This document shows, piece by piece, positions 6,618-64,000 of a DNA stretch of 64,000 nucleotides (the first letter of the stretch is position 1; every line of letters starts with the position of its first letter). Both the position numbers and the translations under genes were made by a program. This DNA comes from Rhodothermaceae bacterium bin80 (GTDB lineage: Bacteria; Bacteroidota; Rhodothermia; Rhodothermales; Bin80). The notes beneath the pieces were generated by a model. The model worked only from the letters and a program-made list of their open reading frames with translations, searched no databases and was not told the DNA's origin. Location of the stretch: assembly GCA_002238805.1 (NCBI GenBank), contig MPNB01000002.1, forward strand, positions 14,045 through 78,044. The letters are read 5' to 3'.

Positions 6618-7422
6618 CGAAACTTATTGTCTGGCTCAGAGCGTGCGTTACTCGTTCGTAGACCGAAAAAGTGCGTGTGCGCATATCATACGTACGGATC
6701 TGGACTTCTAAACTATGATCGCCTGTCTCAATGAGGTTCCAGGAGTTCTTTTCTATCTGCGGTGCGCGCCAACGGTTTGATGTGGCTGTTCCCGCAATAG
6801 AAACTATCAGCTCATTTCCTCCCTCAATACACACCTCCACATGGGCACAATGCCAGTGCCCTGCGCAGACAACCGTAACGCCAGCTTCTGCGGCCGCAGC
6901 AAACAATTTATCCCCGCCACGAGCCAAATCCAGTTCTTCGGATACTTTGAGTGCGGAAAGTGGATGATGAACTGCCAATACCTTGAGTGTGTTCGGCTGC
7001 TGCTCTGAAAAAAAACTCTGTACTCTCTTGACTTGCTGGGCTGTGCAACGCCCCCCCTTGACCGTAAATCCGTATGCGGTATTGAGTCCCAGTACAGCCA
7101 AACCCTGAACGATGATTGACTGCTCCAGCTGCCTGGTAAGCTGCCGCTTGTATCGACGTAATGGGTCAAGCATGCGCAAATCCGGACGATGCCACCACGC
7201 GTGCACATCATGATTCCCGGGAACCACGATGTATGGCTGGGGAAGTGCCTTCAGGAACTCCCGTGCAGCTTTGAACTCGCCCCTTCTTGCCCGCTGGGTA
7301 AGATCACCTGTAATCAGAATCGCGTCACATCCATGCACACGGATATCTTCAATCAGGTCTTCCTGTACATGAAGGGAAGCAATCCGGCCAAAGTGAGGAT
7401 CGCTTACATGTGCCAGCCGCAT
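6610..7422 (-). CDS. metallophosphoesterase (calcineurin-like)
   Basis: 270 aa; HVSDPHFG, ITGDLTQ, VPGNHD, GHWH boxes; 8-nt overlap with the GH88-like gene start. Confidence 0.8.
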   Translation of the reverse strand: MRLAHVSDPHFGRIASLHVQEDLIEDIRVHGCDAILITGDLTQRARRGEFKAAREFLKALPQPYIVVPGNHDVHAWWHRPDLRMLDPLRRYKRQLTRQLEQSIIVQGLAVLGLNTAYGFTVKGGRCTAQQVKRVQSFFSEQQPNTLKVLAVHHPLSALKVSEELDLARGGDKLFAAAAEAGVTVVCAGHWHCAHVEVCIEGGNELIVSIAGTATSNRWRAPQIEKNSWNLIETGDHSLEVQIRTYDMRTRTFSVYERVTHALSQTISFDD

Positions 7423-7568
7423 AAGGACTTGGTTGGATTACAAAAACAACAGCGTAGCGCCTAGATCGAAGTAATCAAACGGAATAGATCTTTCCAGCAA
7501 CCGCCTGAAGACCCCGCCCCCTTTCTGTGATGGTCATCACGCCCGATCTTCGATCCCGGACTTTAGAA

Positions 7569-8825
7569 TCAGATCGCCAAAGCCTGTTCTAAGAACAGGC
7601 CGATCGGGTTTTCCAGCAACTCTTTGAGTGTAGCAAAAAAGCGTGCTCCCACTGCTCCGTCCACCGCCCGGTGGTCACACGATAGTGTGAGCTTCATACG
7701 TTTACCCGGAACAACTACGCCGTCCTGCACGACCGGTGTATCCCGAATCGTGCCGATGGCCAGAATACAGGCATTCGGAGGATTGATGATTGCCGTAAAT
7801 GATTCAATGCCAAACATGCCCAGATTACTGGTAGTAAACGTGGACCCTTCCATCTCTTCCGGGGTCAATTTCCGGTCTCGTGCACGTGCTGCCAGTTCCT
7901 GAGTCTCCTGAGCTATGGCTGCCACGTTCTTTCGATGAGCATCCCGCACAACAGGCGTGACCAACCCATCTTCTATGGCCACAGCTACTCCCACATCTAC
8001 GTAACTGTACCTGCGAATCACACCCTCATCTGCCGCATATGTTACATTCACATCTGGATGTTGTACCAAGGCAGTTGCACTGGCCTTTGTCACAAAGTCG
8101 TTAAAGGAAGCCTTGGGTCGACCAGATTTTTCCAGGTATTCATTCACTGCAGTTCGGTGAGCAATAAGTGCAGTCACATCTACGTCCACATTCAGATAGA
8201 AATGTGGAGAGGTGTACTTGCTCTCAGCCAAACGGCGCGCGATTGCCTTACGCATCTGGGAGATCCGAACCGTTTCAAAGCCACGATCAGCAGATACATC
8301 AACGGGTACAGGAGGCCGGGTTGAGGGCCGAGACATCTGCGCTTCTACATCCCGCTTAATAATGCGCCCTCCCGGGCCGGATCCTGCCAAATCAGTCAGT
8401 TGAAGCCCATGGTCAGCCGCCATCCGCTTAGCGAGTGGCGAAGCCTTGATCCGCCCAGTAAATGTCGCCGCGGAAGTACCAATATTTGTCGGGGCGGGGG
8501 GCGTTTCCGTTGGGGTTTCAACAGGCGCAGGAGGTGGTGCGCCATCGTCAGCCGTATGCGACGACAGTATTGCTGATACATCCTCGCCGGCCTCGCCCAG
8601 AACAGCAATGAGCCCTCCTATCGGCAGGGCATCACCAGCCTGAGCAACTTTTTTGAGTAGGATACCATCATCATATGCCTCAACATCCATCGTTGCCTTG
8701 TCCGTCTCCACCTGTGCAATCACATCACCAGCAGCAATTTTATCTCCTTCTTCAACGGACCACTCAATCAGGACACCCTCTTCCATGGTGTCCGTCATCT
8801 TTGGCATTTCTATTGCAATCGGCAT
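7569..8825 (-). CDS. pdhC: pyruvate dehydrogenase complex E2, dihydrolipoamide acetyltransferase
   Basis: Lipoyl domain (VETDKATMDVEA), Ala/Pro linker, E3-binding domain (ASPLAKRMA), catalytic DHRAVDG; ORF is open from GTG 8837 but ATG 8825 gives the typical MPIAIEMPKMTDTMEEG start. Confidence 0.92.
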   Translation of the reverse strand: MPIAIEMPKMTDTMEEGVLIEWSVEEGDKIAAGDVIAQVETDKATMDVEAYDDGILLKKVAQAGDALPIGGLIAVLGEAGEDVSAILSSHTADDGAPPPAPVETPTETPPAPTNIGTSAATFTGRIKASPLAKRMAADHGLQLTDLAGSGPGGRIIKRDVEAQMSRPSTRPPVPVDVSADRGFETVRISQMRKAIARRLAESKYTSPHFYLNVDVDVTALIAHRTAVNEYLEKSGRPKASFNDFVTKASATALVQHPDVNVTYAADEGVIRRYSYVDVGVAVAIEDGLVTPVVRDAHRKNVAAIAQETQELAARARDRKLTPEEMEGSTFTTSNLGMFGIESFTAIINPPNACILAIGTIRDTPVVQDGVVVPGKRMKLTLSCDHRAVDGAVGARFFATLKELLENPIGLFLEQALAI

Positions 8826-8848
8826 GGTCAGTACCACTTAGAATACGG

Positions 8849-9832
8849 TCAATCAAGATACATCACTGCACGGCAGGCTCGGTATACATCCTCCGTACTC
8901 GGCAGATAGTACTCCATCAGATTTTTAGCATACGGGGCCGGCGTATCTCTGGCGGTGATTCGGTGAACCGGTGCATCAAGGTAATCAAAGGCCTGTGCCT
9001 GAATCTGGAAAGCGATCTCCGAGGAGACGCTTGCAAATGGATTACTCTCGTCCACCACTACGCACCGGTTGGTTTTCTTTACGGACGCGATCACCGTATC
9101 CCAGTCAAACGGGCGAATCGTACGCGGATCAATAACTTCCGCGGCATAACCGTCTGCTTCGAGCATTTCGGCGGCCTCCAGTGCACGCCAGTAGCTCTTG
9201 TTATGGCCTATAATCGTTACCGCGTCACCTTCACGCGCGATCCGTGCCTCACCAATCGGAATGGTATAGTCTTCCGCTTCTGAAACTTCGCCACGCATAC
9301 CATACATAAACTCGCTCTCCAGAAAAACCACTGGATCATCGTCCCGGATTGCTGACTTAAGCAGCCCCTTGGCGTCATCGGGGTTTGACACTGAGATCAC
9401 CTTCAGCCCCGGAAAGCAGCTATAGAGCGCTTCAACCGAAGTGTTGTGTGTCGCCGCCAGCTGCCCGGCTGCACCATTCGGTCCGCGGAACACAATTGGA
9501 AACGAAAACTGTCCCCCCGACATGTAGCGGATCTTGGCCGCATTGTTTATAATCTGATCAATGGCCACGAATGCGAAGTTCCAGGTCATGAACTCAATAA
9601 TAGGCCGGAGCCCATTCATCGCCGCCCCAAGCCCTAACCCCGCAAAGCCATTCTCGCTGATCGGCGTATCAAGCACGCGTCGATCACCAAACCGGTCACG
9701 CATGCCTTCACTGACCTTGTAAGCGCCGTTATACTCGGCCACCTCCTCACCCATGAGGAATATATTCTCGTCGCGATCCATCTCTTCGACCATCGCAGCA
9801 CGGATGGCCTCCCGAATTTGCAATTCTGCCAT
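8849..9832 (-). CDS. pdhB: pyruvate dehydrogenase E1 component, beta subunit
   Basis: 327 aa; typical transketolase-like E1-beta sequence (EEVAEYNGAYKVS..., DTPISENGFAG), placed between E1-alpha and E2. Confidence 0.92.
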   Translation of the reverse strand: MAELQIREAIRAAMVEEMDRDENIFLMGEEVAEYNGAYKVSEGMRDRFGDRRVLDTPISENGFAGLGLGAAMNGLRPIIEFMTWNFAFVAIDQIINNAAKIRYMSGGQFSFPIVFRGPNGAAGQLAATHNTSVEALYSCFPGLKVISVSNPDDAKGLLKSAIRDDDPVVFLESEFMYGMRGEVSEAEDYTIPIGEARIAREGDAVTIIGHNKSYWRALEAAEMLEADGYAAEVIDPRTIRPFDWDTVIASVKKTNRCVVVDESNPFASVSSEIAFQIQAQAFDYLDAPVHRITARDTPAPYAKNLMEYYLPSTEDVYRACRAVMYLD

Positions 9833-52406: not shown

Positions 52407-54383
52407 ATGATTCGTGTCGTTGCCCTTGTTCTGTTGATTGCAGCATCTAGTGCGACTGCTACACAGGCGCAGTTTCTGGGCTGTCCACTCATTGACCAGA
52501 TTACGCTGCAGGCATGCAAGGTGCTAGAAAAACTCTTCTACGATACGGACGGGTATAACTGGCGCAACGTACGCGGCTGGCTTCGGACGAACCAACCCTG
52601 TGATTGGTACGGTATCACATGCAGATCCTCGAGATGGCCAAGGGAAATCATACACATTGACCTTTCCGGCAACAACCTGACTGGTACACTGCCGGGAGAT
52701 CTGGCATTCCTGCAGGAACTGCAATCCCTTCGGATCGACAACAGTGGTCCGGGCGTCCGACTAAGAAAACTGACCGGCCAAATCCCGACAACCCTCGGAG
52801 ATCTTGAGTACCTGGAGGTTCTAACACTGGGTAATAATGCCTTCACAGGCACCATCCCGGCAGAACTCGGAAACCTGCCCAATCTTCGGGAACTAAGTCT
52901 GGAAGCTAATGAACTGGAAGGACCAATACCCGAGAGACTTGGACAATTATTGCAATTGCAGCGCCTTGATCTCAGTGAGAATCATTTGGGAGGATCAATT
53001 CCCGATACACTCCGCAATCTGACCAAGCTAGAGTACCTCAACTTGCGCCAAAATATGTTCACTGGAAACCTACCAGTATGGCTGGGAGATTTCAATATGC
53101 TCAGGTTTTTTGATGCAAGCCAAAATCAACTGTCGGGGAGGATACCGGAAGAATTCTCCAATCTAGACGAACTTCTCTGGCTATCCCTCGCTGACAACAA
53201 TCTGGAAGGCGCTCTGTCCCTCTCCATAGCCACCTTTGCTGCAGGCATAAATAACTGTGACCTGCAAGGAAATGGCGTATGCATTCCAGATGCACCCCCA
53301 TATGCCAACCTGGATCAAGTTTGCTCGCTGTCTCGAGACAATGCGTGTAAAGCATGTGAAGGGCCCAATTGCGAAAGCCTTGAATCTATCTACGTTGAGA
53401 CAGGAGGGGCGACATGGACACAAAATAATGGATGGCTCGCCAGTTCTCAGCCATGCGATTGGCATGGCGTCAACTGTACCGGTGAAGCAATAACACATTT
53501 GATCCTGCCGGATAATGGCATGGTGGGTAAGTTACCCGCCGCTCTATCGTCCATGCAAAGCCTTGAAGTCCTCGACCTATCTGGAAATAACCTTCAAGGG
53601 TCCATGCCGGCAAAGTACGCTGCACTCACCAATCTGGATATTCTGGATCTTAGCGACAACAAGCTGACGGGCGCCCTGCCACTCCAGGTCGCAGTTCTTG
53701 GCACAAAACTGTCCCAGTGCAACCTCTCAAACAATGCCGGTATCTGCGTACCCGATAGTCCAGAATATGCAGCACTTGACACTAGCCCTATCTGTCATCT
53801 CCAGCTTCGCGGAGACTGCCTGGGCTACGATCTTGTCGCTGTAAGTGAGCTGAAAGCTATGCCGGGGGAACGATCAATTCGTCTTACCTGGTCTATAACA
53901 CCATCCTCCTCCGCGATTACGTTCTTTGTCGAAAACACGCAGCAGCCACCGGTGACCATCGGCCAGGTTCAGGGGAACAGTGAGGCGCAGACCACCTTTA
54001 CGTACACCGTAGAGGATCTGGATCCAGGTCAATATTCTTTCCAGATCCGGCAAGTAACGGCCAACGGCGCCTACAGGGTTACCGGACCTGTGACTGCTGA
54101 ATTGTATGCCGAAGGCCTTGTGACAGAGAAAGCTTATCCTAATCCATTTTCCACGGAAGCCGTTCTTCAGTTCACCTCCGGCACATACGGATCAGTCGAT
54201 ATCGCACTGTATGATCTTCTTGGTCGTCGGATCCAGACTCTTTTCAGCGGCACACCTCCACTTCATCAATCAACCCGGATCAAGATCAAAGCCCATGGAC
54301 TCTCGGCCGGAACCTACATAGTGCGCAGCCGCATAGAAGATCAACCGGCATCCTCCCAGCGTATAGTATTCGTCAGGGACTAG
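52407..54383 (+). CDS. secreted leucine-rich-repeat protein (plant-type 24-residue LRRs, two LRRNT-like caps) with T9SS C-terminal sorting domain
   Basis: 658 aa; signal peptide; caps ...NQPCDWYGITC and ...SQPCDWHGVNC; LRRs such as LSGNNLTGTLPGDLAFLQELQSL and NAFTGTIPAELGNLPNLRELSL; FN3-like segment; C-terminal YPNPFSTEAVLQF...IALYDLLGRRIQTLF (Por secretion tail). Confidence 0.8.
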   Translation: MIRVVALVLLIAASSATATQAQFLGCPLIDQITLQACKVLEKLFYDTDGYNWRNVRGWLRTNQPCDWYGITCRSSRWPREIIHIDLSGNNLTGTLPGDLAFLQELQSLRIDNSGPGVRLRKLTGQIPTTLGDLEYLEVLTLGNNAFTGTIPAELGNLPNLRELSLEANELEGPIPERLGQLLQLQRLDLSENHLGGSIPDTLRNLTKLEYLNLRQNMFTGNLPVWLGDFNMLRFFDASQNQLSGRIPEEFSNLDELLWLSLADNNLEGALSLSIATFAAGINNCDLQGNGVCIPDAPPYANLDQVCSLSRDNACKACEGPNCESLESIYVETGGATWTQNNGWLASSQPCDWHGVNCTGEAITHLILPDNGMVGKLPAALSSMQSLEVLDLSGNNLQGSMPAKYAALTNLDILDLSDNKLTGALPLQVAVLGTKLSQCNLSNNAGICVPDSPEYAALDTSPICHLQLRGDCLGYDLVAVSELKAMPGERSIRLTWSITPSSSAITFFVENTQQPPVTIGQVQGNSEAQTTFTYTVEDLDPGQYSFQIRQVTANGAYRVTGPVTAELYAEGLVTEKAYPNPFSTEAVLQFTSGTYGSVDIALYDLLGRRIQTLFSGTPPLHQSTRIKIKAHGLSAGTYIVRSRIEDQPASSQRIVFVRD

Positions 54384-54505
54384 TCGAGTATACTCAGGGG
54401 ATATCAGTAGCCAACCATGCCCCAACAGATCGCATGCTTCAGGCCCCTTACGAACGTCGGGTTTTGACTCACAATGAAACAATGCCTATCCCGAACTATT
54501 CTACG

Positions 54506-54580
54506 GTTTTGTCCGCAGGTGCCAAGATAGAGCTTCCTCAACCGGCCCGTGCAGTTTTATCCACAGGTGCACAGGATAGA
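54506..54580. repeat. imperfect about 27-bp direct repeat (2 copies, about 47-bp period) upstream of hsdM
   Basis: GTTTTGTCCGCAGGTGCCAAGATAGA (54506-54531) versus GTTTTATCCACAGGTGCACAGGATAGA (54554-54580). Confidence 0.6.
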
Positions 54581-54645
54581 ATAGTGTACAGACCACAGGG
54601 AAGTGTATCATTGGGTATCTTACGCGAAATAGGGAATGAGGCAAT

Positions 54646-56232
54646 ATGACGCAGGAAAAGAAGAAATTATCTGAAAAAAAAGCCGCACCTGATGCGAACA
54701 GTGCCGTAGTTGGGTACGAAGCCGAACTCTGGGATATGGCCAACTTGCTTCGGGGAAGCATGGACGCGGCCGAATACAAGCACATCGTTTTGGGGCTAAT
54801 ATTTCTCAAGTACATATCCGACGCGTTTGAGGAAAAACGCCGCGACCTCGAAACACGAATATCCGAAGGAGATGATCAAGATAATCCAGAGGATCCTGAT
54901 CAATACCGTATGGACAACATATTCTGGGTGCCTCCCGAAGCTCGCTGGCAGGACATCCAGGCGCAGGCAAGACAACCCTCCATCGGAAGACTCATCGATA
55001 AAGCGATGATGGAAATCGAGCGCGTAAACAAGGAGCTTAAGAGTGTCCTACCGAAAGACTATGCTCGCCCAGCGCTGAATAAGCAAAGGCTCGGCCAAGT
55101 AATTGATCTTATCAGCAACATAAAAGTCGGCGACAGTAATGCGCGATCAAAGGATGTTCTGGGAAGGGTCTACGAATACTTTTTATCTCAATTTGCGAGT
55201 GCTGAAGGAAAGAGGGGCGGGGAGTTCTATACACCGCGCTGCATCGTTCGGCTTTTGGTTGAGATGATAAAACCCTATCGGGGTCGAGTCTATGATCCGT
55301 GCTGCGGCTCATCCGGCATGTTCGTGCAATCGATAGAATTTATTCGCTCACATGCTACCGGTAATGGTAATGGGGGTAAAGCACGGGGAGACATATCGAT
55401 TTATGGTCAGGAGTCGAATTATACGACATGGCGCCTAGCAAAAATGAATCTTGCCATCCGCGGCATTGAAGGTCAAATTGCACACGGCGACAGCTTCCAC
55501 AACGATAGACACCTGGATTTGAGAGCGGATTTTATCCTTGCCAATCCACCGTTTAATGTTTCTGATTGGGGAGGAGAGCGTTTGGTAGAGGATAAGCGCT
55601 GGCGCTACGGTGTGCCGCCGAAGAGTAATGCCAATTTCGCCTGGATTCAGCACATGGTTCACCATCTTGCCCCGAGGGGCGTTGCGGGGTTCGTGCTGGC
55701 CAACGGGTCTATGTCTTCGAATCAGTCCGGCGAGGGCGAGATCCGCAAGAACCTAGTCGAGGCCGAACTCGTGGACTGCATGGTCGCCCTTCCCGGCCAA
55801 CTGTTCTACTCGACACAGATTCCTGCCTGTCTTTGGTTCCTTGCACGCCGACGCAGGCGGCGCGGCGAGATCCTCTTCATTGATGCGAGGAAGCTCGGAC
55901 GGATGATGGACCGGACGCACCGCGAACTGACCGGCGAGGACATCACCCGGATCGCGGACACCTACCATGCTTGGCGAGCTACCAAGGAAGGGGGCAGCTA
56001 CGCCGATGTTCCCGGCTTCTGCAAGAGCGCCGCGCTGGACGAGGTCCGCAAGCACGGCCACATGTTGACGCCGGGCCGGTATGTGGGCGTGGAGCCGCAG
56101 AAGAACGACGGAGAACCCTTCAAGGACAAGATGAAGCGGCTGGTCGCTGAGTTTCGAGAGCAACAGGCCGAAGGTGGTCGACTTGATGCTGCGATCAACG
56201 AGAACTTGGAATCATTAGGATTCGGAGGATGA
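54646..56232 (+). CDS. hsdM: Type I restriction-modification system, N6-adenine DNA methyltransferase subunit
   Basis: 528 aa; HsdM N-domain ([32 protein letters not shown]); AdoMet box [12 protein letters not shown]; catalytic LANPPFN. Confidence 0.93.
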
Positions 56233-56239
56233 GGGGGCA

Positions 56240-56665
56240 ATGAATATAGACACTACCTTCCTGCGCCGCTGTATTGCCTCGCTAGAACGAGCGATGGAGG
56301 AAATCAAACGGCATGAGGGCGGCGACAATATCATGTACGATATCTATCGCGCCGCGTGCGTCAAGGAATTTGAACTTGTACTTGAGCAGTCCGGTAAGCT
56401 GTTGCGCAAGCTGCTGGCCGCCTGGTTTGCCAGCAACAAACAGGCCGACCGTCTCCATTTTAAGGATATCTTCCGCCATGCGGCTCGTCACGACCTGATC
56501 GCGTCTGACGCAACAGAGCGCTGGCTGCGCTATCGTGACAACCGCAATCTCACCGCTCACGACTACGGTGAAGATTTTGCGGAGCACACACTCAAGCTGC
56601 TTCCCGCATTCATTGCTGATGCGAAATCCTTGGCTGACATGCTTGATCGTACGAACGATGAGTAA
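56240..56665 (+). CDS. HEPN-domain protein, HI0074-type nucleotidyltransferase substrate-binding family (pair 1)
   Basis: 141 aa; Rx4H motif in RDNRNLTAHDY; starts 7 nt after the hsdM stop. Confidence 0.8.
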   Translation: MNIDTTFLRRCIASLERAMEEIKRHEGGDNIMYDIYRAACVKEFELVLEQSGKLLRKLLAAWFASNKQADRLHFKDIFRHAARHDLIASDATERWLRYRDNRNLTAHDYGEDFAEHTLKLLPAFIADAKSLADMLDRTNDE

Positions 56666-56990
56666 CCGGTTGCTTCTCTCTCCAAGACACCGGTGCATTT
56701 TGGAGGCGCTGTTGCGGGAGCACTTGCCCGATGTGGAGGTGTGGGCGTATGGCAGCCGCGTGAGCGGCCGGGGCCACCAAGGCAGTGATCTCGACCTCGT
56801 GCTACGGGGGCCAGGGCTCAACGAAATTCCATTCGAACGGCTGATGGACTTTAAGGATGCCGTCCGGGAATCGACGATTCCTTTTCTCGTCGAGGCGAGG
56901 GACTGGGCGAGACTGCCGGAGCGATTCCATCGGGAGATCGGGCGGGAGCATGTGGTGGTTGTGGGGCTACAGGAAATACGGACATCATAG
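56658..56990 (+). CDS. minimal nucleotidyltransferase (MNT) domain protein (pair 1)
   Basis: 110 aa from ATG 56658 (ATGAGTAA overlap with the HEPN stop); YGSRVSG...GSDLDLVL (GS and DxD motifs) ... PFLVEARDW. Confidence 0.8.
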   Translation: MSNRLLLSPRHRCILEALLREHLPDVEVWAYGSRVSGRGHQGSDLDLVLRGPGLNEIPFERLMDFKDAVRESTIPFLVEARDWARLPERFHREIGREHVVVVGLQEIRTS

Positions 56991-57199
56991 GCCGACCGTT
57001 TCGTGATGATTAGTTTTTCGGCATTGGGACTGCATTTTTCCTGATCACCTTACTTCGTACTGGTAGGAGACCTGCTTGTATCTTCCATGGAGGCGCCCTA
57101 TCTTTCGCCGTATGCAGTATAATTTTTGCGGTGTTTGAGCACGGAGAATCCCGCTGCATGTACACGCGAGGTTCGCCGTATTCCTTGGGAAGTTTTCCA

Positions 57200-57455
57200 G
57201 GCACAAACGTCGACATCGCTGGTGATATGTCCCAGAGTGCTAGGTGCTTGTGTTTGGATCTCGCGCGACTTGGACTGCAAGGACTACTAGAACCTGGATA
57301 TTGCTATCATGGGCGAGGAGCCTTTGCCGCCGCACACACACTCGGCTTTCGATGAGGAATTTGTCGATTCTGGTCTTCCGTTTAGTGTGGATATCGTAAG
57401 ATTGGCCAAGGTTAAGGATAGCTTTAGTGTCATCATCCGAAAATATGGACAATAA
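57200..57455 (+). pseudogene. decayed MNT-type nucleotidyltransferase remnant
   Basis: One frame reads VLVFGSRATWTARTT (57244-57288), bounded upstream by TAG 57241-57243. A different frame, after TAG 57288-57290, reads NLDIAIMGEEPLPPHTHSAFDEEFVDSGLPFSVDIVRLAKVKDSFSVIIRKYGQ* (57291-57455). No intact ORF joins them. Confidence 0.55.
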
Positions 57456-57507
57456 TCCTGCATTCAATGTAAAACCGTGATCGCCGTGCGGGCCTAAGGG
57501 TAGTACC

Positions 57508-57641
57508 CAAGAGAATGATGACGAATCGTTCGAGGACAGGATGGAGAGGCTGGTAGTTGAACTCCGCGAACGACAGGTGGAAGGCTTCGGTCTGATACCG
57601 TGATCCAAAAGAATTTAATGGCTTTAGGATTGGGAGGTTAA
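57508..57641 (+). pseudogene. remnant of a second hsdM 3' end (last about 45 codons, frameshifted)
   Basis: 57508-57603 reads QENDDESFEDRMERLVVELRERQVEGFGLIP*, and 57600-57641 in a shifted frame reads VIQKNLMALGLGG*. Compare the intact hsdM C-terminus [44 protein letters not shown]. Confidence 0.7.
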
Positions 57642-57647
57642 TAGCTT

Positions 57648-58061
57648 ATGAGTAACTCAGACGAACAGCACTGGCAGCAGCGGCTAAACAATCTCGGGAC
57701 TGCATTCGTACAGTTGACGGATGTCTGTGAACGCGAATGGTACGACAATCTGGAGCTTGCAGGGCTGATCAAGACGTTCAAGTTCTGTTTCGGGCTATCG
57801 TGGAACGTTCTAGAGGATTTATTCCTCTATGAGGAGTATGATGCGAAGGTGCCACGAGCGGTGATTTGCAAGAGCTTTGATGTTGATTATATTGACGAGA
57901 GCGATTGCGAGACACTGCTTGACGCCTTGGATAAACGTGATCTGTTGAGTCATGTATACTTGAGTGATGTCGCTCGGGAAGCTGAGGTGCTGATCAAAGG
58001 ACACTACTATCCGGTCCTCCTTCGGCTCCACCAGAATCTAGATGCCAGACGAACGCAATGA
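57648..58061 (+). CDS. HEPN-domain protein, HI0074-type family (pair 2)
   Basis: 137 aa; Rx4H motif in KRDLLSHVY; starts 6 nt after the stop of the hsdM 3' remnant. Confidence 0.75.
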   Translation: MSNSDEQHWQQRLNNLGTAFVQLTDVCEREWYDNLELAGLIKTFKFCFGLSWNVLEDLFLYEEYDAKVPRAVICKSFDVDYIDESDCETLLDALDKRDLLSHVYLSDVAREAEVLIKGHYYPVLLRLHQNLDARRTQ

Positions 58062-58429
58062 CGGGCAGTCTCAAGGACATGCATCGCGATGCGATTATTT
58101 CCAAACTAGCGGCCAACGATTGCGTGGAGCGGGCAGTGCTATTTGGATCCAGAGCAATGGTAACGGACGCTGTGTCATCCGATGAGGTCATCGTATTATT
58201 TGGTAATCGGCTGACACTGACGGATCAGGTGCGCTTGGCCGCAGCATTGGACGAGATCCCGATGGCACAATCGGTTGACCTGAGTCTATATGATTCAATA
58301 CGTGACAGGGCGTCAGAGAGTCATATTCGGAATCACGGTATTGAGTGGTTTGCGCGCCCGATGGCAATACCCAGCGCTCGCGCCATATCACCGTCCGATA
58401 TACGGGAATCAGTCCACTTGGGGCAGTAA
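58058..58429 (+). CDS. MNT-domain nucleotidyltransferase (pair 2), catalytic DxD apparently degenerate
   Basis: 123 aa; ATGA overlap with the HEPN gene; AVLFGSRA (GS motif) but SSDEVIVLF where DxD is expected; unusually long C-terminal tail. Confidence 0.65.
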   Translation: MTGSLKDMHRDAIISKLAANDCVERAVLFGSRAMVTDAVSSDEVIVLFGNRLTLTDQVRLAAALDEIPMAQSVDLSLYDSIRDRASESHIRNHGIEWFARPMAIPSARAISPSDIRESVHLGQ

Positions 58430-58442
58430 AAGTTCGGCGAGT

Positions 58443-58718
58443 GACCTTACAGCAGAAGATCACAAGACCATTCAATAGTTGCTAGATGAGCATCTCCCGA
58501 GCACAGGTGTCTGGATTAACGGTTCTGGAGCAAAGTGGATCTCCGCCCCAAAATCAGTTTTGGACCTTGTGGTGTTCACGACACCTGAGCAGCAGCAAGA
58601 GATCAATGACTTACGAAAAACATTCGAAGAGAGTAATTTGCCGTTTCGGGTAGATCTCTCCATTTGGGAAGAAATGTCAGAAAACTTTCACGAAGACTAT
58701 ATCGTTTTGGCTAACAGA
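58443..58718 (+). pseudogene. third, decayed MNT-like segment with in-frame TAG, continuous in frame with hsdS
   Basis: DLTAEDHKTIQ-TAG(58476-58478)-LLDEHLPSTGVWINGSGAKWISAPKSVLDLVVF...NLPFRVDLSIWEEMSENFHEDYIVLANRV is colinear with MNT pair 1 (LSPRHRCILEALLREHLPDVEVWAYGSRVSGRGHQGSDLDLVL...IPFLVEARDWARLPERFHREIGREHVVV); GS and DxD motifs are degraded. Confidence 0.6.
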
Positions 58719-60032
58719 GTGTCGGCACAAGTAACCACTAACTGGAGAGAAACATCTATTGGAGAGATAGCAGACATTGTGGGAGGCGGCACACCATCAA
58801 CTAAGGATCGCGGAAATTTTAATGGTTGTATCCCTTGGTTAACCCCAAAAGATCTCTCGGGCACTCATGAACGCTACATTCGGCGCGGTGAGCGAAATTT
58901 GTCGCAGAAGGGGCTCAATAATTCCTCTGCGAGGTTGCTTCCCGCACATTCTGTTTTGCTCTCAACTCGCGCTCCAATCGGATATGTAGCTCTCGCGAAG
59001 AATCCAATTGCAACCAACCAAGGGTTCCGCAGTCTCATTGTCCGAGATGGCGTGATTCCAGAGTTTCTATATTACTGGATAAAGTTGAATACCCAAGAGC
59101 TTGAGCGCCATGCTTCCGGGTCGACATTCCGAGAACTCTCGGGATCTGCACTTAAGGACATTCGGATTAAGGTCCCATCCCTTCCTGAACAACGCACCAT
59201 TACGCATATTCTCAGCACGCTGGACGATAAGATTGAGTTGAACCGTCGGATGAACGAGACGCTGGAGGCGATGACTCGGGCACTGTTTAAGTCTTGGTTT
59301 GTTGATTTCGATCCTGTGCGAGCCAAAATGGAGGGACGAGATACTGGATTACCGAAACACATAGCTGATCTGTTTCCAGGCCGACTAGTGGAATCTGAAC
59401 TGGGAAAAATTCCAGAGGGATGGAGGGTTGGGAGTGTGAATGACATATGCAAGAAAATTGAAAACGGAGGGACACCCAAACGTTCAGTTCAGGAGTACTG
59501 GAATGGGAATATCCAGTGGTTCAAAACGTCTGAGTTAGTGGATGAGCCACTTCTAAATTCTTCCGAACAAATTACCCAAAAAGGACTCGATTACTCATCT
59601 TGCAAACGTTGGCCAAAGGGAACAGTATTAATTGCTTTGTATGCCGCTCCGACAGTGGGGCGATTAGGGATTCTGGAAATATCTGCGACCGCTAATCAAG
59701 CCTGTTGCGGACTGAATGCAGAGTCCAATTTTGGAAATCAATTTCTGTATTACGTGTTACTGTTTAGAAGATCTTATTTCCACAGAATTGCCGTGGGGGC
59801 GGCACAGCAAAACATCAGCCAAAAGATTGTTAGAGATTGCCGGATTATTATACCTTGCACAGTAATATCTAGGACATTTCATAGTTGGGCAGAGGCAATT
59901 TATTCGCAGAGGGTCACGGAACTATCGGAATCTCGTACTCTTTCCGACCTCCGTAATACCCTTCTCCCTAAACTCATTTTGGGAGAAATCCGCTTGCCCA
60001 AGGCTGGGACGGAGATGGAGGCCCAAACATGA
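58674..60032 (+). CDS. hsdS: Type I restriction-modification system, specificity subunit
   Basis: Two target-recognition domains (IGEIADIVGGGTPST...; VNDICKKIENGGTPKR...) separated by the conserved helix LPEQRTITHILSTLDDKIELNRRMNETLEAMTRALFKSWFVDFDP. ORF is open from TTG 58479; functional start is probably ATG 58674 or GTG 58719. Confidence 0.88.
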   Translation: MSENFHEDYIVLANRVSAQVTTNWRETSIGEIADIVGGGTPSTKDRGNFNGCIPWLTPKDLSGTHERYIRRGERNLSQKGLNNSSARLLPAHSVLLSTRAPIGYVALAKNPIATNQGFRSLIVRDGVIPEFLYYWIKLNTQELERHASGSTFRELSGSALKDIRIKVPSLPEQRTITHILSTLDDKIELNRRMNETLEAMTRALFKSWFVDFDPVRAKMEGRDTGLPKHIADLFPGRLVESELGKIPEGWRVGSVNDICKKIENGGTPKRSVQEYWNGNIQWFKTSELVDEPLLNSSEQITQKGLDYSSCKRWPKGTVLIALYAAPTVGRLGILEISATANQACCGLNAESNFGNQFLYYVLLFRRSYFHRIAVGAAQQNISQKIVRDCRIIIPCTVISRTFHSWAEAIYSQRVTELSESRTLSDLRNTLLPKLILGEIRLPKAGTEMEAQT

Positions 60033-60856
60033 GTTCTCTTACGGACATCGAAAAGCGCTATTTCGAGAAGCTGTTCGGAATGAGTAGCGGCTATGTGCTT
60101 GACTTCTCCAATGCCACTTTTGACAAGTTCTTCCGACGATACAATGTCAATATCCACGGTCCAAAATATCAGACCTTCGGAACATCCAAGGCGAAAAAAC
60201 TTCGCGCCTTTTGGGAATCGGAGCCTGATCAGCTTGTTGGACCTGTGCTCTCCGAAATGCTGGCTTCCTATGAGGCCGATTGCGAGCTCACGGGCCAGGA
60301 TGTTGATAAGATCCCGCTGGAACGCGCACGGCGCATTGTTGACCGTCTCACCGGTGTATCTATGGCCCGTGACTCTGCCGGGAAAGAAAGCGAATTCTTG
60401 GACCGCGAGTTTGCCATCCCAAGCATCCAGAAGCTACCGATCGATCCTCGGGTCGTCCCGATCGTCGAAGCACGACTGAACGAGGCCCGCATAGCGTTGG
60501 GTGCCGGTGCTCATTTATCCGTGATCTTTCTGTGCGGTAGCGTCTTAGAAGCCGTCCTGCTTGGTGCTGCTCGGCAGAGCCCAGCGATCTTCAATCAGGC
60601 GAAAGCAACACCGACAAAAAATTGTTCGCCAAAACGCTTTCACGAATGGAGCCTCGCACAGCTGATCAATGTCGCGTACGAGGTCGGCATCCTGAAGCTC
60701 GACATCAAGAAGTTCAGTCACGGATTGCGCGACTTCCGAAATTATATCCATCCATACGAGCAATTGGCGTCGGGTTTCACGCCGGACGAACACACCGCTA
60801 AAGTCTGCTTCCAAGTTCTCAAGGCGGCGCTGGCAAGCTTGGCAGGGGAACGCTAA
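60029..60856 (+). CDS. uncharacterised R-M-linked protein with C-terminal HEPN-like helical domain
   Basis: 275 aa; ATGA overlap with the hsdS stop; C-terminal helical region ...SVIFLCGSVLEAVLLGAA...WSLAQLINVAYEVGIL...FSHGLRDFRNYIHPYE... contains an R-x6-H / RN..H type motif; no family recognised with certainty. Confidence 0.6.
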   Translation: MSSLTDIEKRYFEKLFGMSSGYVLDFSNATFDKFFRRYNVNIHGPKYQTFGTSKAKKLRAFWESEPDQLVGPVLSEMLASYEADCELTGQDVDKIPLERARRIVDRLTGVSMARDSAGKESEFLDREFAIPSIQKLPIDPRVVPIVEARLNEARIALGAGAHLSVIFLCGSVLEAVLLGAARQSPAIFNQAKATPTKNCSPKRFHEWSLAQLINVAYEVGILKLDIKKFSHGLRDFRNYIHPYEQLASGFTPDEHTAKVCFQVLKAALASLAGER

Positions 60857-60953
60857 TGATCCGTGTCCTCATAACCCCATTTGTTCTCCGCTGAGCACGC
60901 AAGTGGTCGTGGCGAACGAGACATTGCTTGCGATCCGGCACCGAAGTAGTCAA

Positions 60954-61142
60954 ATGACGACCTTTACTGAGTTGGAAATCGGAACCACCGCACTTGAGTG
61001 GCTTAAAGGCTTGGGCTGGCATGTGAACCACGGTATAGACATCGGACCGCAGACGAAAGGCGCGGAACGTGCGGACTACATTGAAGTTCTTCCCGAACGC
61101 CGGCTGCGGGATGCCTCGGGTCGGCTGAACCTTGATCTAGAG
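60954..61142 (+). pseudogene. remnant of an hsdR 5' end (first about 63 codons only)
   Basis: MTTFTELEIGTTALEWLKGLGWHVNHGIDIGPQTKGAERADYIEVLPERRLRDASGRLNLDLE parallels the N-terminus of the intact hsdR at 63352 (SESVVEEASLDWFREIDYLVIGGTDMQPG..LRETYEDVLFPTTLHQALSRLNPELP), then diverges and stops at 61187. Confidence 0.65.
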
Positions 61143-61468
61143 AGATTAGAGATTTTAAGCTATTATCCTAGTCAAAGATGGGATTGATAAACGGCAGACA
61201 AGATTGATTTGGGAGGATGTCCTCGGCGTTGTCTTCCCCTCCTCACAAAAGCAGATTCGAAAACAATTTGAGGCTTTACAGCATTTAACAAATATCTCAC
61301 CAAGAAGATCACTGCTAGGAAACCACCACTAGAATATGAGGGTTGCATACTACCCAACAACGAGACTGGCAAGGCGTCCGTGGAGACCCATATAGACTAC
61401 TTGATAAAGGGAAGCAACACCTATAGAAACCATCTTGAAAGAAAATTGGAGCCCGTAGTGATAAACCC

Positions 61469-62653
61469 ATGCCCCACATAGAGCATTTTTCTATCCGCGG
61501 TTTCAAGTCAATTCGCAAGCTCGAGAATTTCGAACTAAAGCCCCTGAACATATTGATCGGCGCCAACGGAGTCGGAAAAAGTAATCTTCTGAGTCTGTTT
61601 AAAATGCTCTCTGCTCTTTCCCAGAGGCGTCTTCAGCTTTTCGTCAAGAACGAGGGTGGCCCGGATGCATTGCTGTTCGGTGGCCGAAAACTAACTTCAA
61701 AGCTTGAAGTGGCCCTGTCATTTGAAAACAATCGCTATAGATACGAATTCTCGCTTGAACCGACAGCTGACTCAGTAGCCTTCTCCGGCGAGAAGCTCCT
61801 CACAGCGTTCGGTAGTTTAGTGTCGGCCGATGGGAGTAGTGAATCGGATATGTTTGATGATATATCTAATATTGTTGAATATATGTCTGATATTGATCAG
61901 CACATGTCTCATGCACATCCTGCAGAATTTGCATCTTACGTAGACTCCGCATCTTTTGCAGAATTTGTATCTTTTGCAGAATTTGCATCTTATGTTTTGT
62001 CCCATATGGAACACTGGCGCGTGTTTCATTTTCAGGATATGAGCGATACGGCTCACGTACGAAATCAGTCAGATGTACGCGATAATCTTCGACTAAGACC
62101 GGACGCTGGGAATCTTGCACCTTTTCTGCGCCATCTCCGTGAACATTATCCTAACCATTATCGAAGAATCATAGATGTGATCCGACTCTCGGCTCCGTTC
62201 TTTAAAGACTTCGTCTATCGCAAAAATCAGAACCTGGGAGACAGTATGGATCTTGAATGGGAGGCGTGGGGAGATCCAGACATGGCGTTTGGTCCACGAC
62301 AGCTCTCAGACGGTACGTTACGTTTCATCTGTCTCGCTACTCTGTTAAATCAGCCAGAAATCCTTCGGCCGAACCTCATTCTTATTGACGAGCCCGAACT
62401 AGGATTGCATCCATTCGCGCTGACGCTCCTAGCCGAAATGATCCAGCAAGCAGCCGACTTGCAACAGATTATTATTTCAACACAATCCGCAGAACTTGTA
62501 AGTCATTTTGAACCCGAAGATATCGTGGTTGTCGATCGCAAGAACAAAGAATCCGTTTTTAGAAGGCTCAATTCGGAGCTCCTTGCCAGTTGGCTTGAAG
62601 ACTATACGCTCGGCGACCTCTGGAAAATGAATGTACTTGGCGGCAGACCCTAA
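61469..62653 (+). CDS. ABC-type (AAA_15/AAA_21-like) ATPase, defence-island type
   Basis: 394 aa; IRGFKSI...LNILIGANGVGKSNLL (Walker A); signature-like RQLSDGTLRF; Walker B/D-loop LILIDEPELGLHP; IISTQS. Confidence 0.8.
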   Translation: MPHIEHFSIRGFKSIRKLENFELKPLNILIGANGVGKSNLLSLFKMLSALSQRRLQLFVKNEGGPDALLFGGRKLTSKLEVALSFENNRYRYEFSLEPTADSVAFSGEKLLTAFGSLVSADGSSESDMFDDISNIVEYMSDIDQHMSHAHPAEFASYVDSASFAEFVSFAEFASYVLSHMEHWRVFHFQDMSDTAHVRNQSDVRDNLRLRPDAGNLAPFLRHLREHYPNHYRRIIDVIRLSAPFFKDFVYRKNQNLGDSMDLEWEAWGDPDMAFGPRQLSDGTLRFICLATLLNQPEILRPNLILIDEPELGLHPFALTLLAEMIQQAADLQQIIISTQSAELVSHFEPEDIVVVDRKNKESVFRRLNSELLASWLEDYTLGDLWKMNVLGGRP

Positions 62654-62655
62654 CC

Positions 62656-63336
62656 ATGAAGAAAGTCATTATTGCCTGCGAAGGACAAACCGAAGAGGCT
62701 TTCGTGAAGAGACTTCTCTATGGTGAGCTCTGGCCGAAAGAAGTGTTTGCAGAACCACGTCTCATCCCCACTTCTTCTCATGGAAGAGGCGGTGCGCTCA
62801 AGGGACAACGTGTACTCCGCTTCCTTCGAAACACCCTTCGGGAACAACATAACACCTATGTCACGACATTTTTCGATCTGGTTTCCCTGCCGGCGGATTT
62901 CCTTGGACTTGCGGGTATCTCCGCGACGACAGACCCGATTGATTGCGCGACAAGGATTGAGTCTGCGTTTCATGATGTCGTTGTACGCAAGACAGAGTGT
63001 CGGTCCGAACGCTTTTTTCCTCACATTCAACCTTATGAATTTGAAGCCCTCCTATTTTCGGATACAAGCTGTTTTGCTGAGGCAGAGCCCGCGTGGGAGG
63101 CATTTGTTGGAAAACTCTTAAGCATACGTAAAAGCTCAAAAGGCCCTGAGTACATAAACGACGGAATCAATACGCATCCGTCGGCGCGACTCCGGGATCT
63201 TCTTCGCCCACGATACAAAAAAGTCATACACGGTACCAAAGTCTCAACTAAGATAGGCATCGCCTGCATGCGGTCGGAGTGTCAGCATTTTGACGGCTGG
63301 CTCAAGCGTATCGAGAACCTCCCCGAGCTTGATTAA
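62656..63336 (+). CDS. DUF4276-like protein (putative Toprim-like partner of the ATPase)
   Basis: 226 aa, starts 2 nt after the ATPase stop; N-terminal KKVIIACEGQTEEAFVKRLL (hhhhEGxTE, Toprim-type first motif); YEFEALLFSD; C-terminal CQHFDGWLKRIENL, as I remember for DUF4276. Confidence 0.65.
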   Translation: MKKVIIACEGQTEEAFVKRLLYGELWPKEVFAEPRLIPTSSHGRGGALKGQRVLRFLRNTLREQHNTYVTTFFDLVSLPADFLGLAGISATTDPIDCATRIESAFHDVVVRKTECRSERFFPHIQPYEFEALLFSDTSCFAEAEPAWEAFVGKLLSIRKSSKGPEYINDGINTHPSARLRDLLRPRYKKVIHGTKVSTKIGIACMRSECQHFDGWLKRIENLPELD

Positions 63337-63351
63337 CAGGAGACATAACCC

Positions 63352-64000
63352 ATGGCGCTGTTATCAGAATCGGTGGTGGAAGAGGCGTCTCTCGACTGGT
63401 TCCGCGAGATTGACTACTTGGTAATCGGTGGAACAGACATGCAGCCCGGCGCGAACTCCCTTCGCGAAACGTATGAAGACGTCCTATTCCCAACAACGCT
63501 GCATCAGGCGCTCTCCCGTCTGAATCCCGAGCTCCCCCTAGAAGCAATTGACGACGCTAAGCGCAAACTGCTTAACCCCGAAGGCCAAACTCTTGAAGCC
63601 CGAAACCGCGCGTTTCACCGCATGGCCATAGACGGCGTGACGGTTGAATTCCAAGGAGACGACGACAAGCCCCAATGGGACCATGCCCGAGTGTTTGATT
63701 TTGACGCCCCCGAGAATAATGACTGGATTGTCGCCAACCAGTTCACCGTGACTGAGGGTGAACATACTCGTCGCCCAGACATCGTGGTGTTTGTGAACGG
63801 TCTTCCCCTAGCCGTGATCGAACTCAAGTCTCCCATTGATGAAAACGCAACAATTTCATCCGCTTGGCGACAACTGCAGACCTACAAGAGAGAAATCCCC
63901 TCGCTTTTTGTCTTCAATCTGGCGCTGGTCATATCAGACGGTGTGAAAGCACGTGTCGGCTCGCTTACAGCGGGTCTTGAATGGTTCAAGCGATGGCGGA
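63352..64000 (+). CDS. hsdR: Type I restriction enzyme, restriction (helicase-nuclease) subunit, N-terminal part (runs off the window)
   Basis: Not in the ORF track because no stop is reached. My translation from ATG 63352: MALLSESVVEEASLDWFREIDYLVIGG...RRPDIVVFVNGLPLAVIELKSP...WRQLQTYKREIPSLFVFN...ISDG, the classical HsdR N-terminal PD-(D/E)xK nuclease region. Confidence 0.9.
   Translation, partial: MALLSESVVEEASLDWFREIDYLVIGGTDMQPGANSLRETYEDVLFPTTLHQALSRLNPELPLEAIDDAKRKLLNPEGQTLEARNRAFHRMAIDGVTVEFQGDDDKPQWDHARVFDFDAPENNDWIVANQFTVTEGEHTRRPDIVVFVNGLPLAVIELKSPIDENATISSAWRQLQTYKREIPSLFVFNLALVISDGVKARVGSLTAGLEWFKRWR

Follow-up and report, generated by a model that had tools for sequence, protein, structure and literature searches.

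Between the two HEPN/MNT toxin-antitoxin gene pairs of a Type I restriction-modification (R-M) locus in Rhodothermaceae bacterium bin80 there is a remnant of the 3' end of an hsdM gene, of which 133 nucleotides (nt) are recognisable. The DNA analysed, referred to here as the window, is a 64,000 nt stretch of contig MPNB01000002.1 (assembly GCA_002238805.1, positions 14,045 to 78,044), in which an intact hsdM is followed by a first pair, HEPN1 and MNT1, and then, behind the hsdM stump, by a second, HEPN2 and MNT2 (Table 1). The stump is probably the tail of a second hsdM, in which case an operon of the HEPN2 type, or a piece of one, would have recombined behind an hsdM-HEPN1-MNT1 module like that of a related contig, L091, with the redundant core genes being lost afterwards.

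The hsdM stump

When the resident HsdM is compared with the 64 kb by tblastn, two linked segments, 57508–57585 and 57576–57638, match HsdM residues 485–528 at 57–62% identity (E 1.2e-6), and beyond these and the gene itself the next best match has an E-value of 3.6. In blastn within the window the stump is 69.8% identical to 56102–56228 over 129 nt (E 3.7e-8), and 57506–57638 aligns to positions 159–292 of an nhmmer profile of the terminal 300 nt of hsdM, for which 45 genes from other genomes were used and the window was left out (E 1.1e-18). The initial annotation of this DNA, which was made from the letters and their open reading frames (ORFs), had proposed the resemblance subject to its statistical significance, and all three comparisons uphold it.

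The sequence represents the last 45 or so codons of a Type I hsdM, truncated and frameshifted. The relic had been placed at 57470–57660, where it is indeed present, but the recognisable homology begins at about 57506 rather than 57470. Likewise, there is one frameshift, as had been stated, but this is a 1-nt deletion at about 57586–57587, after ...QVEG, and so about 12–15 nt upstream of the proposed 57598–57603. There is no start codon, no upstream coding sequence and no ORF of 40 amino acids (aa) or more, and the TAA that ends the final frame comes 3–4 codons early. With its partial homology and its disabling lesions, the stump has the features of an hsdM pseudogene relic. The two junctions themselves read as had been described: the resident hsdM ends ...NLESLGFGG with a TGA at 56230–56232, 7 nt before the HEPN1 ATG at 56240, and the stump ends ...NLMALGLGG with a TAA at 57639–57641, 6 nt before the HEPN2 ATG at 57648.

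Placement of the stump in a lineage of hsdM was attempted and had to be abandoned, as the identity of its 44 residues to the resident hsdM (61%) cannot be told apart from that to many foreign ones (61–66%). A few unusual residues are common to the stump and the resident gene, namely the Asn that comes third in QxND and the GG before RL.

The single-pair operon of L091

L091 is a 4981 bp contig carrying the closest HEPN1 homologue on a usable contig. It is 90–95% identical to the window at the nucleotide level from the upstream flanking gene through hsdM (90–98%) and HEPN1 into MNT1, and its hsdM has the same ...NLESLGFGG end. At the orthologous site it has only hsdM, HEPN1 and an MNT1 fused to hsdS, followed by an AAA_13 gene; the second set is absent. 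Within MNT1 the identity drops from 92% to 73–75% at about 56747, and there is none after about 56960. Window positions 56740–56967 are, instead, 85.5% identical to the stand-alone MNT1 of three other loci (L086–88). MNT1 therefore reads as a mosaic, the 5' half being like that of L091 and the 3' half, from about 56747, being of the stand-alone type. The one-pair operon of L091 and this break in homology indicate that the window DNA to the right of mid-MNT1 has another origin, and the proposal that a second set was added to, or merged with, the first agrees with the state of this approximately 90% identical relative.

The AAA_13 ATPase of L091 (4546–4980, E 3e-30), which has the N-terminal domain type of PrrC/RloC, lies after hsdS, where the window has an ORF of 275 aa.

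HEPN genes are tied to the 3' end of hsdM

The proteins of the window were mapped onto 80 HEPN2-type loci (L006–L085), which had been retrieved through the alignment of HEPN2 homologues. These come from metagenome-assembled genomes (MAGs) that are assigned to about ten phyla (Vicinamibacterales, Longimicrobiales, Rhodothermales, Spirochaetia, Binatia, Bryobacterales, Opitutales, Alphaproteobacteria, and others). An intact hsdM, its product 75–82% identical to that of the window, is directly 5' of HEPN2 in 45 of the 80 loci. In all 45 the frame ends ...LGFGGKGx and the TGA overlaps the HEPN2 start as a 4-nt NTGA (30 GTGA, 9 ATGA, and 6 TTGA), and the frame is 3–4 codons longer than either of the hsdM ends in the window. 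HEPN1-type loci L089 and L090 have a GTGA overlap too. The arrangement of stop, 6–7 nt, and HEPN start, which had been described as present twice, is not that of these relatives; on this comparison the similarity of the two gaps is coincidental, each being due to a derived early stop immediately after the Gly-Gly codons, and not a conserved or ancestral junction.

In a further nine loci, hsdM is broken by frameshifts or internal deletions, with its 3' end still abutting HEPN2, and in six the stump alone is present. The fragmented hsdM of L059, L023, L015, and L044 has several internal deletions. There are 15 loci in which nhmmer detects no hsdM relic, and at least eight of these retain a micro-relic in the 36 nt before the HEPN2 start (p ≤ 0.001 within the same locus). 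Even the stand-alone HEPN1-MNT1 pairs of L086–88, which are outside any R-M locus, are preceded by 63 nt of hsdM tail (E 1.7e-7), which suggests that such stand-alone pairs are escapees from R-M operons. Judged from these loci, HEPN is indeed tied to the hsdM 3' end, as had been proposed from the window in describing the two as welded together, and the tie is general. Given that the HEPN start lies inside the last hsdM codons, any event that keeps a working HEPN would keep at least the tip of hsdM.

The left boundaries of the stumps are scattered across the loci, at profile positions 37, 46, 120, 136, 155–159, 237, and 250. Position 120 is common to L064, L068, L071, and L083, where it lies inside an otherwise complete locus. 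The stumps of the window (57506–57638), L057 (5853–6003), and L078 (5853–5996) all begin at 155–159, at about codon 484. The HEPN2 genes of these three are not mutual closest relatives, each of them being closer to HEPN2 genes that follow an intact hsdM.

Two or more such operons, some of them in tandem (L013, L036, L056), are present in several of the genomes. The hsdM, HEPN2 (56–77% aa identity), and MNT2 genes recur in MAGs assigned to about ten phyla, and a genome often has several copies, a distribution which implies that the operon as a whole has been transferred horizontally on a large scale within one habitat. Many of the record names would suggest that this habitat is the marine sponge microbiome.

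MNT is commonly a domain of HsdS

The gene order hsdM-HEPN-MNT-hsdS, for which a survey of Type I loci had been recommended, is general, but MNT is commonly not a separate gene. It reads in frame into the N-terminus of HsdS without a stop in 47 of the 80 MNT2 copies and 12 of the 23 MNT1 copies, for example in L024 (6411–8036), L030 (6411–8033), L091 (2942–4546), and L089 (5419–7035), the window counterpart being 58434–60032. Polbeta or NTP_transf_2 and Methylase_S are found by Pfam in one protein in L024, L030, L091, and L064, and independent gene calls give products of 535–538 aa with both the MNT and the HsdS domains. The MNT2 family has 381 members among 1.84 billion representative sequences; about half of the best 60 are 410–760 aa long, with MNT at residues 1–100. 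Three different types of MNT are found fused to HsdS. Not every MNT of the MNT1 type is fused, the closest homologues of MNT1 all being stand-alone. One PADLOC 'Specificity_I' model aligns to MNT1 over its first 96 positions, so that the model contains an MNT domain and the fusion is implicit in existing databases. The literature searched contains no description of an MNT::HsdS fusion, of the 4-nt hsdM/HEPN overlap, or of hsd stubs as recombination markers, although absence there is not proof of novelty.

The normal unit in these sequences is hsdM, HEPN, and MNT::HsdS, interlocked at every joint: by NTGA, by the overlap of the HEPN stop with the MNT start, and by the fusion. HEPN/MNT pairs of the HI0074/HI0073 kind are thus interlocked with these operons, rather than loosely 'embedded' in them. 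Such an arrangement raises the tentative possibility that silencing of the RNase depends on the presence of an intact HsdS, and perhaps of the whole methylase complex, making this an addiction or guardian module with a logic like that of PrrC, but acting through AMPylation. If so, the stubs in the window would be a record of how interlocked operons recombine, and HEPN2, next to a detached MNT2 that lacks an Asp, would need another neutraliser, which might be MNT1 or simple binding. Should the fusion have this functional meaning, it would provide a testable link between type VII toxin-antitoxin and restriction-modification systems.

L064 has a single frame of 855 aa (6411–8975, also in L083) composed of MNT2, an MNT1-like domain, HsdS, and, between the two target-recognition domains, DUF559, a Vsr-like endonuclease. 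Upstream of this frame, a frameshifted Fic gene lies between hsdM and the stump.

The second set as a probable operon cut at both ends

The 3' boundary of the second set is marked by another remnant, the first 63 or so codons of an hsdR, which mirrors the hsdM stump. This is 61% identical to the N-terminus of the HsdR of L032 (E 1e-24) and only 29% to the resident HsdR, and it is 55–65% identical to the HsdR of plain HEPN2 operons, compared with 31–37% for the HsdR of loci bearing HEC-01. Similar stubs precede the AAA_21 gene in L083 and L040. The 275-aa ORF 5' of it is 82% identical to the ORF in the same position in the canonical operon L024 and 65% identical to that in L065; it has no Pfam, NCBIfam, or PADLOC match. 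Because the hsdR stub is of the plain HEPN2-operon type and the 275-aa ORF matches L024, the appearance is of a single operon of the HEPN2 type, made up of the hsdM stump, HEPN2, MNT2, the 275-aa ORF, and the hsdR stub, that was cut at both ends and lies between the hsdM-HEPN1-MNT1 and HEC-01-hsdR modules. The Type I system of the window is nevertheless complete, with hsdM, hsdS, and hsdR all present and intact.

Traces of a third type of MNT are present on either side of the second pair. That at the N-terminus of the hsdS frame (psiMNT3-b) is 55% identical over 100 aa to the MNT3 of L036 (E 2.6e-36), and has an in-frame TAG at 58476–58478, GSG in place of GSR, and SVLDL in place of SDLDL, which breaks the GSX10DXD motif. 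The trace 5' of the stump (psiMNT3-a) is more weakly assigned, from tblastn matches of the same MNT3 in two frames, EEFVDSGLPFSVDI (E 8e-4) and YVPEC*VLVFGSRATWTA (E 0.008). Intact MNT3-type genes adjoin HEPN2 directly upstream in L027 and L036. The two traces were considered as a duplication flanking an insert, which is ruled out by their mutual divergence being too great.

Origin of the stump

The favoured course of events is as follows. Recombination between paralogous or foreign operons, of which one crossover can be seen inside MNT1, would have brought a HEPN2-type operon, or part of one, to lie behind an hsdM-HEPN1-MNT1 module of the L091 type. Redundant core genes would then have been lost, leaving only 133 nt of the second hsdM and the first 63 codons of the second hsdR, while one intact hsdM, hsdS, and hsdR and both toxin-antitoxin pairs were kept. 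The extreme 3' end of the second hsdM may persist because its former Gly-Gly codons provide GGGAGG, a putative ribosome-binding site of HEPN2, and a G-rich run of this kind is ahead of 58 of the 80 HEPN2 starts. The block would be transcribed by read-through from the hsdM promoter. The series from intact to fragmented hsdM, to stump, and to micro-relic across the loci indicates that the stump may be what remains of a whole second hsdM.

Several observations do not sit easily with this. There is no intermediate state among the sequences found, the closest HEPN2 relative being 77% identical, and a full second hsdM at this site cannot be shown. Random erosion does not predict that the stumps of the window, L057, and L078 should be cut alike near codon 484 when their HEPN2 genes are not closest relatives. 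For psiMNT3-a to lie where it does, between MNT1 and the stump, one more event or a donor that was already composite has to be assumed. The stump is not measurably closer to any one hsdM lineage, and the polarity between L091 and the window cannot be rooted, so that L091 could be the derived state.

The shared cut near codon 484 would be accommodated if the DNA that arrived was already limited to the last 135 or so nt of hsdM with HEPN2, MNT2, and what follows, inserted behind the first pair by illegitimate recombination, perhaps facilitated by homology. There would then never have been a full second hsdM here, and the hsdM tail would be part of the moving unit, for which there is some encouragement in the relics on stand-alone pairs outside R-M loci (L086–88; L028, L034, L040, L073, and others) and in the boundary at position 120 within four otherwise complete loci. 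Yet no terminal repeats, target duplication, or recombinase were found, the stump boundaries overall range from position 37 to 250, the multiple internal deletions of hsdM in L059, L023, L015, and L044 indicate that erosion in place does happen, and the hsdR stub at the far end better fits a whole-operon origin. Import of a fragment is possible, but is considerably less probable than loss from a second operon; erosion in place of a complete second hsdM is favoured over it, without the sequences being able to decide. Local tandem duplication of the resident hsdM 3' end with its HEPN and MNT, followed by divergence, would explain the same gene order, the similar spacing, and the few unusual residues common to the two hsdM ends. 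It is effectively refuted, however, in that HEPN1 and HEPN2 are barely alignable (E 0.06), as are MNT1 and MNT2 (E 0.02), each HEPN and MNT has hundreds of homologues of 70–88% identity in other phyla, the stump matches foreign hsdM genes at least as well as the resident one, and L091 lacks the second copy; this origin is very improbable. A merely fortuitous likeness between a short frame and the HsdM C-terminus, which might be suspected with only 44 residues aligned and one frameshift required, is refuted by the three E-values and by the same relic occurring at the same place in many other loci, and its probability is negligible.

The recurrent boundary might also indicate that selection has retained the tail for a function of its own, for example as a structured RNA, as a small peptide, or as the promoter or leader of HEPN2-MNT2-hsdS. 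GGGAGG, 10 nt 5' of the ATG, and one weak σ70-like match at 57427–57456 would be in keeping with this, as would the use of ATG as the HEPN2 start, which is seen in 6 of 40 loci with an intact hsdM but in 15 of 34 with an eroded one, a trend that is not relied upon since several of the loci are of one lineage. However, there is no Rfam match in the stump or hsdM tail, the counts of promoter- and terminator-like sequences around the tail are near shuffled expectation, and the window stump, besides having no ORF, is frameshifted and carries many substitutions. Across 41 intact hsdM genes, the variability of the third codon position is 0.48–0.62 in the last 45 codons, no lower than the 0.45–0.73 found upstream, so that no embedded conserved nucleotide element is visible. 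A function for the tail is unlikely. The stump is an ordinary gene remnant, a non-functional scar of recombination and erosion, and not a new kind of element.

The HEPN/MNT pair had also been interpreted as a discrete cassette, a second one having been stacked behind the first. No meaningful direct or inverted repeats are present in 54000–64000, or around either pair; a 15-nt match between 57504 and 59090 is probably due to chance. None of the ORFs or genes called at the locus encodes a recombinase. The defined ends, sites, and recombinase of a mobile gene cassette are therefore lacking, with stump boundaries scattered from locus to locus, MNT2 most often fused to HsdS, and an hsdR stub at the other end of the block. 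What had been observed at the two junctions is thus confirmed, while its interpretation is supported in part, the tie to hsdM being general and the travelling unit not being a discrete pair.

The Type I defence loci of these bacteria would, on this evidence, be assembled by the merging of whole or partial operons, with one working copy of the core being kept while toxin-antitoxin pairs accumulate, from modules that are common to MAGs assigned to about ten phyla at 70–88% protein identity. The stump is useful as a marker of this assembly. Its interest is modest and lies mainly in operon architecture and assembly, the MNT::HsdS fusion being the more interesting by-product.

The two HEPN/MNT pairs

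Both HEPN proteins belong to PF08780, each within its own large family. HEPN1 matches HI0074 (PDB 1JOG, E 2.6e-11) and has 2378 homologues, the best of which are 74–88% identical, and MNT1 matches HI0073 (PDB 1NO5, E 3.7e-13). HEPN2 matches a 'HEPN toxin' (PDB 8XDJ, E 2.5e-11), has more than 170 homologues at 67–77% identity, and retains all 32 of the residues that are invariant in its family. Its ratio of nonsynonymous to synonymous substitution (dN/dS) is about 0.08, but dS is saturated (about 2); for HEPN2 and MNT2 together there is no sign of relaxed selection, and the saturation of dS lets no more be said.

In MNT2, which is detached from HsdS in the window, the second Asp of GSX10DXD has become Val (codons 42–46, SDVDIAL to SDEVIVL). 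This Asp is invariant in 73 of 73 homologues. DXD-to-EXE mutants of MntA have been reported to lose adenylylation and to neutralise poorly (PMC7641770). With HEPN2 intact beside an MNT2 that lacks the Asp, there is apparently a toxin here without a catalytically competent cognate antitoxin.

Relation to known systems

In type VII HepT/MntA systems, for example SO_3166/SO_3165 of Shewanella, the toxin has the motif RX4HXY and the antitoxin GSX10DXD (PMC7641770). As in these, and in HI0074/HI0073 of H. influenzae, which HEPN1 and MNT1 match directly, both HEPNs of the window are PF08780 proteins with RX4HXY, MNT1 has GSX10DXD, and the genes are adjacent and overlapping; in MNT2 the motif reads GS..SDEV. 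The order, however, is HEPN then MNT, whereas MNT has been described as almost always 5' (PMC3710099), and the pair sits between hsdM and hsdS, with the MNT of relatives being a domain of HsdS and with MNT2 lacking its second Asp. The curated NCBIfam HepT_toxin and MntA_antitoxin equivalogs score only 22.7, 23.5, and 17.4 bits against a cut-off of 60, far under what is expected of this type, while TIGR01987 (HI0074) scores 49.6 and 47.3 bits, just under its cut-off of 55.8.

PrrC of EcoprrI is a HEPN anticodon nuclease encoded in a Type IC R-M locus, which is held latent by the R-M complex and senses inhibition of the enzyme (PMC12707154, PMC3710099). The window similarly has HEPN RNase genes inside a Type I hsd operon, and in relatives the partner MNT::HsdS is physically in the R-M complex. 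PrrC is, however, an ABC-ATPase-HEPN fusion encoded between hsdS and hsdR, with no MNT and no AMPylation step, whereas HEPN1 and HEPN2 are single-domain proteins of 137–141 aa and the AAA_13 gene of L091 is separate, so that neither HEPN has the PrrC architecture.

PIN-type toxin-antitoxin genes have been reported in Type I loci (PMC5499597), and HEPN families that cluster with R-M operons or lie within them have been described (PMC3710099). The interleaving of accessory genes, including these and the PADLOC HEC candidates, with hsdM, hsdS, and hsdR is the same phenomenon as that seen here, the window also having HEC-01. Integrons and other site-specific cassettes resemble this locus in the stacking of small defence or toxin-antitoxin genes at one place, but here there is no attC-like repeat, no integrase, and no defined ends, the breakpoints being scattered. 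The stump shares the truncation, frameshift, and early stop of ordinary recombination or deletion remnants of paralogous operons, with a matching hsdR stub at the other end of the block, and does not differ from them in kind; the only special point is that it extends into the region where translation of a live toxin gene starts.

Other features of the locus

The features of the locus are listed in Table 1. Five independent assemblies of this organism are identical over 54000–64000 and show no population variation. About 650 nt between MNT1 and HEPN2 (56991–57647) are non-coding, and the first part of this, 56991–57194, has no blastn match in 88 loci and no Rfam match.

Table 1. Features of the Type I R-M locus, with positions given in the 64,000 nt window.
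Feature	Position	Strand	Description
hsdM	54646–56232	+	528 aa; Pfam HsdM_N and N6_Mtase, E 1e-107
HEPN1	56240–56665	+	141 aa; PF08780 / HI0074 family, 71.7 bits (cut-off 31.8); RX4HXY intact (RNLTAHDY)
MNT1	56658–56990	+	110 aa, stand-alone; Pfam NTP_transf_2; GSX10DXD intact (GSRVSGRGHQGSDLD)
Spacer	56991–57194		No recognisable relic
psiMNT3-a	57195–57455	+	Decayed third-type MNT gene; in-frame stop, 2 or more frameshifts; weak assignment
hsdM 3' stump	57506–57641	+	Residues ~484–528 of an hsdM; tblastn, blastn, DNA profile
GGGAGG	57632–57637	+	Former hsdM Gly-Gly codons, 10 nt 5' of HEPN2 ATG; Shine-Dalgarno-like
HEPN2	57648–58061	+	137 aa; PF08780, 68.4 bits (cut-off 31.8); RX4HXY intact (RDLLSHVY)
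MNT2	58058–58429	+	123 aa; Pfam Polbeta; detached from HsdS
psiMNT3-b	58434–58721	+	Degenerate MNT3-type domain, N-terminus of hsdS frame; tblastn with L036 MNT3
hsdS	58479–60032	+	517-aa ORF; two Methylase_S domains, Pfam E 1.8e-56
275-aa ORF	60029–60856	+	Family not assigned; ATGA overlaps hsdS stop
hsdR 5' stub	60954–61142	+	First ~63 codons of a foreign, HEPN2-operon-type hsdR
AAA_21 ATPase and DUF4276 pair	61469–63336	+	PADLOC candidate HEC-01A/B, E 7e-131 and 2e-65; Pfam
hsdR	63352–64000 (runs off window)	+	Intact; 1039 aa in full contig

There is a sharp step in G+C content inside hsdM (54400–56250), from 47–48% in the 5' half to 60–63% in the 3' half. This is common to L091, which suggests an older recombination within hsdM. 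The central conserved region of hsdS is 85% identical at the nucleotide level to that of L091. The full length of hsdR was taken from the full contig, in MAG GCA_026713585.1, and its product has the domains HSDR_N, ResIII, and T1RH-like_C (gene call, L001–L004). The AAA_21/DUF4276 pair is also 5' of hsdR in L019, L027, L051, and L068, where HsdR is of a distinct N-terminal subtype. Inside the AAA_21 gene, at 61921–62010, there is an imperfect 18-nt tandem repeat (four overlapping copies of a 36-nt unit), which encodes ...EFASYVDSASFAEFVSFAEFASYV...

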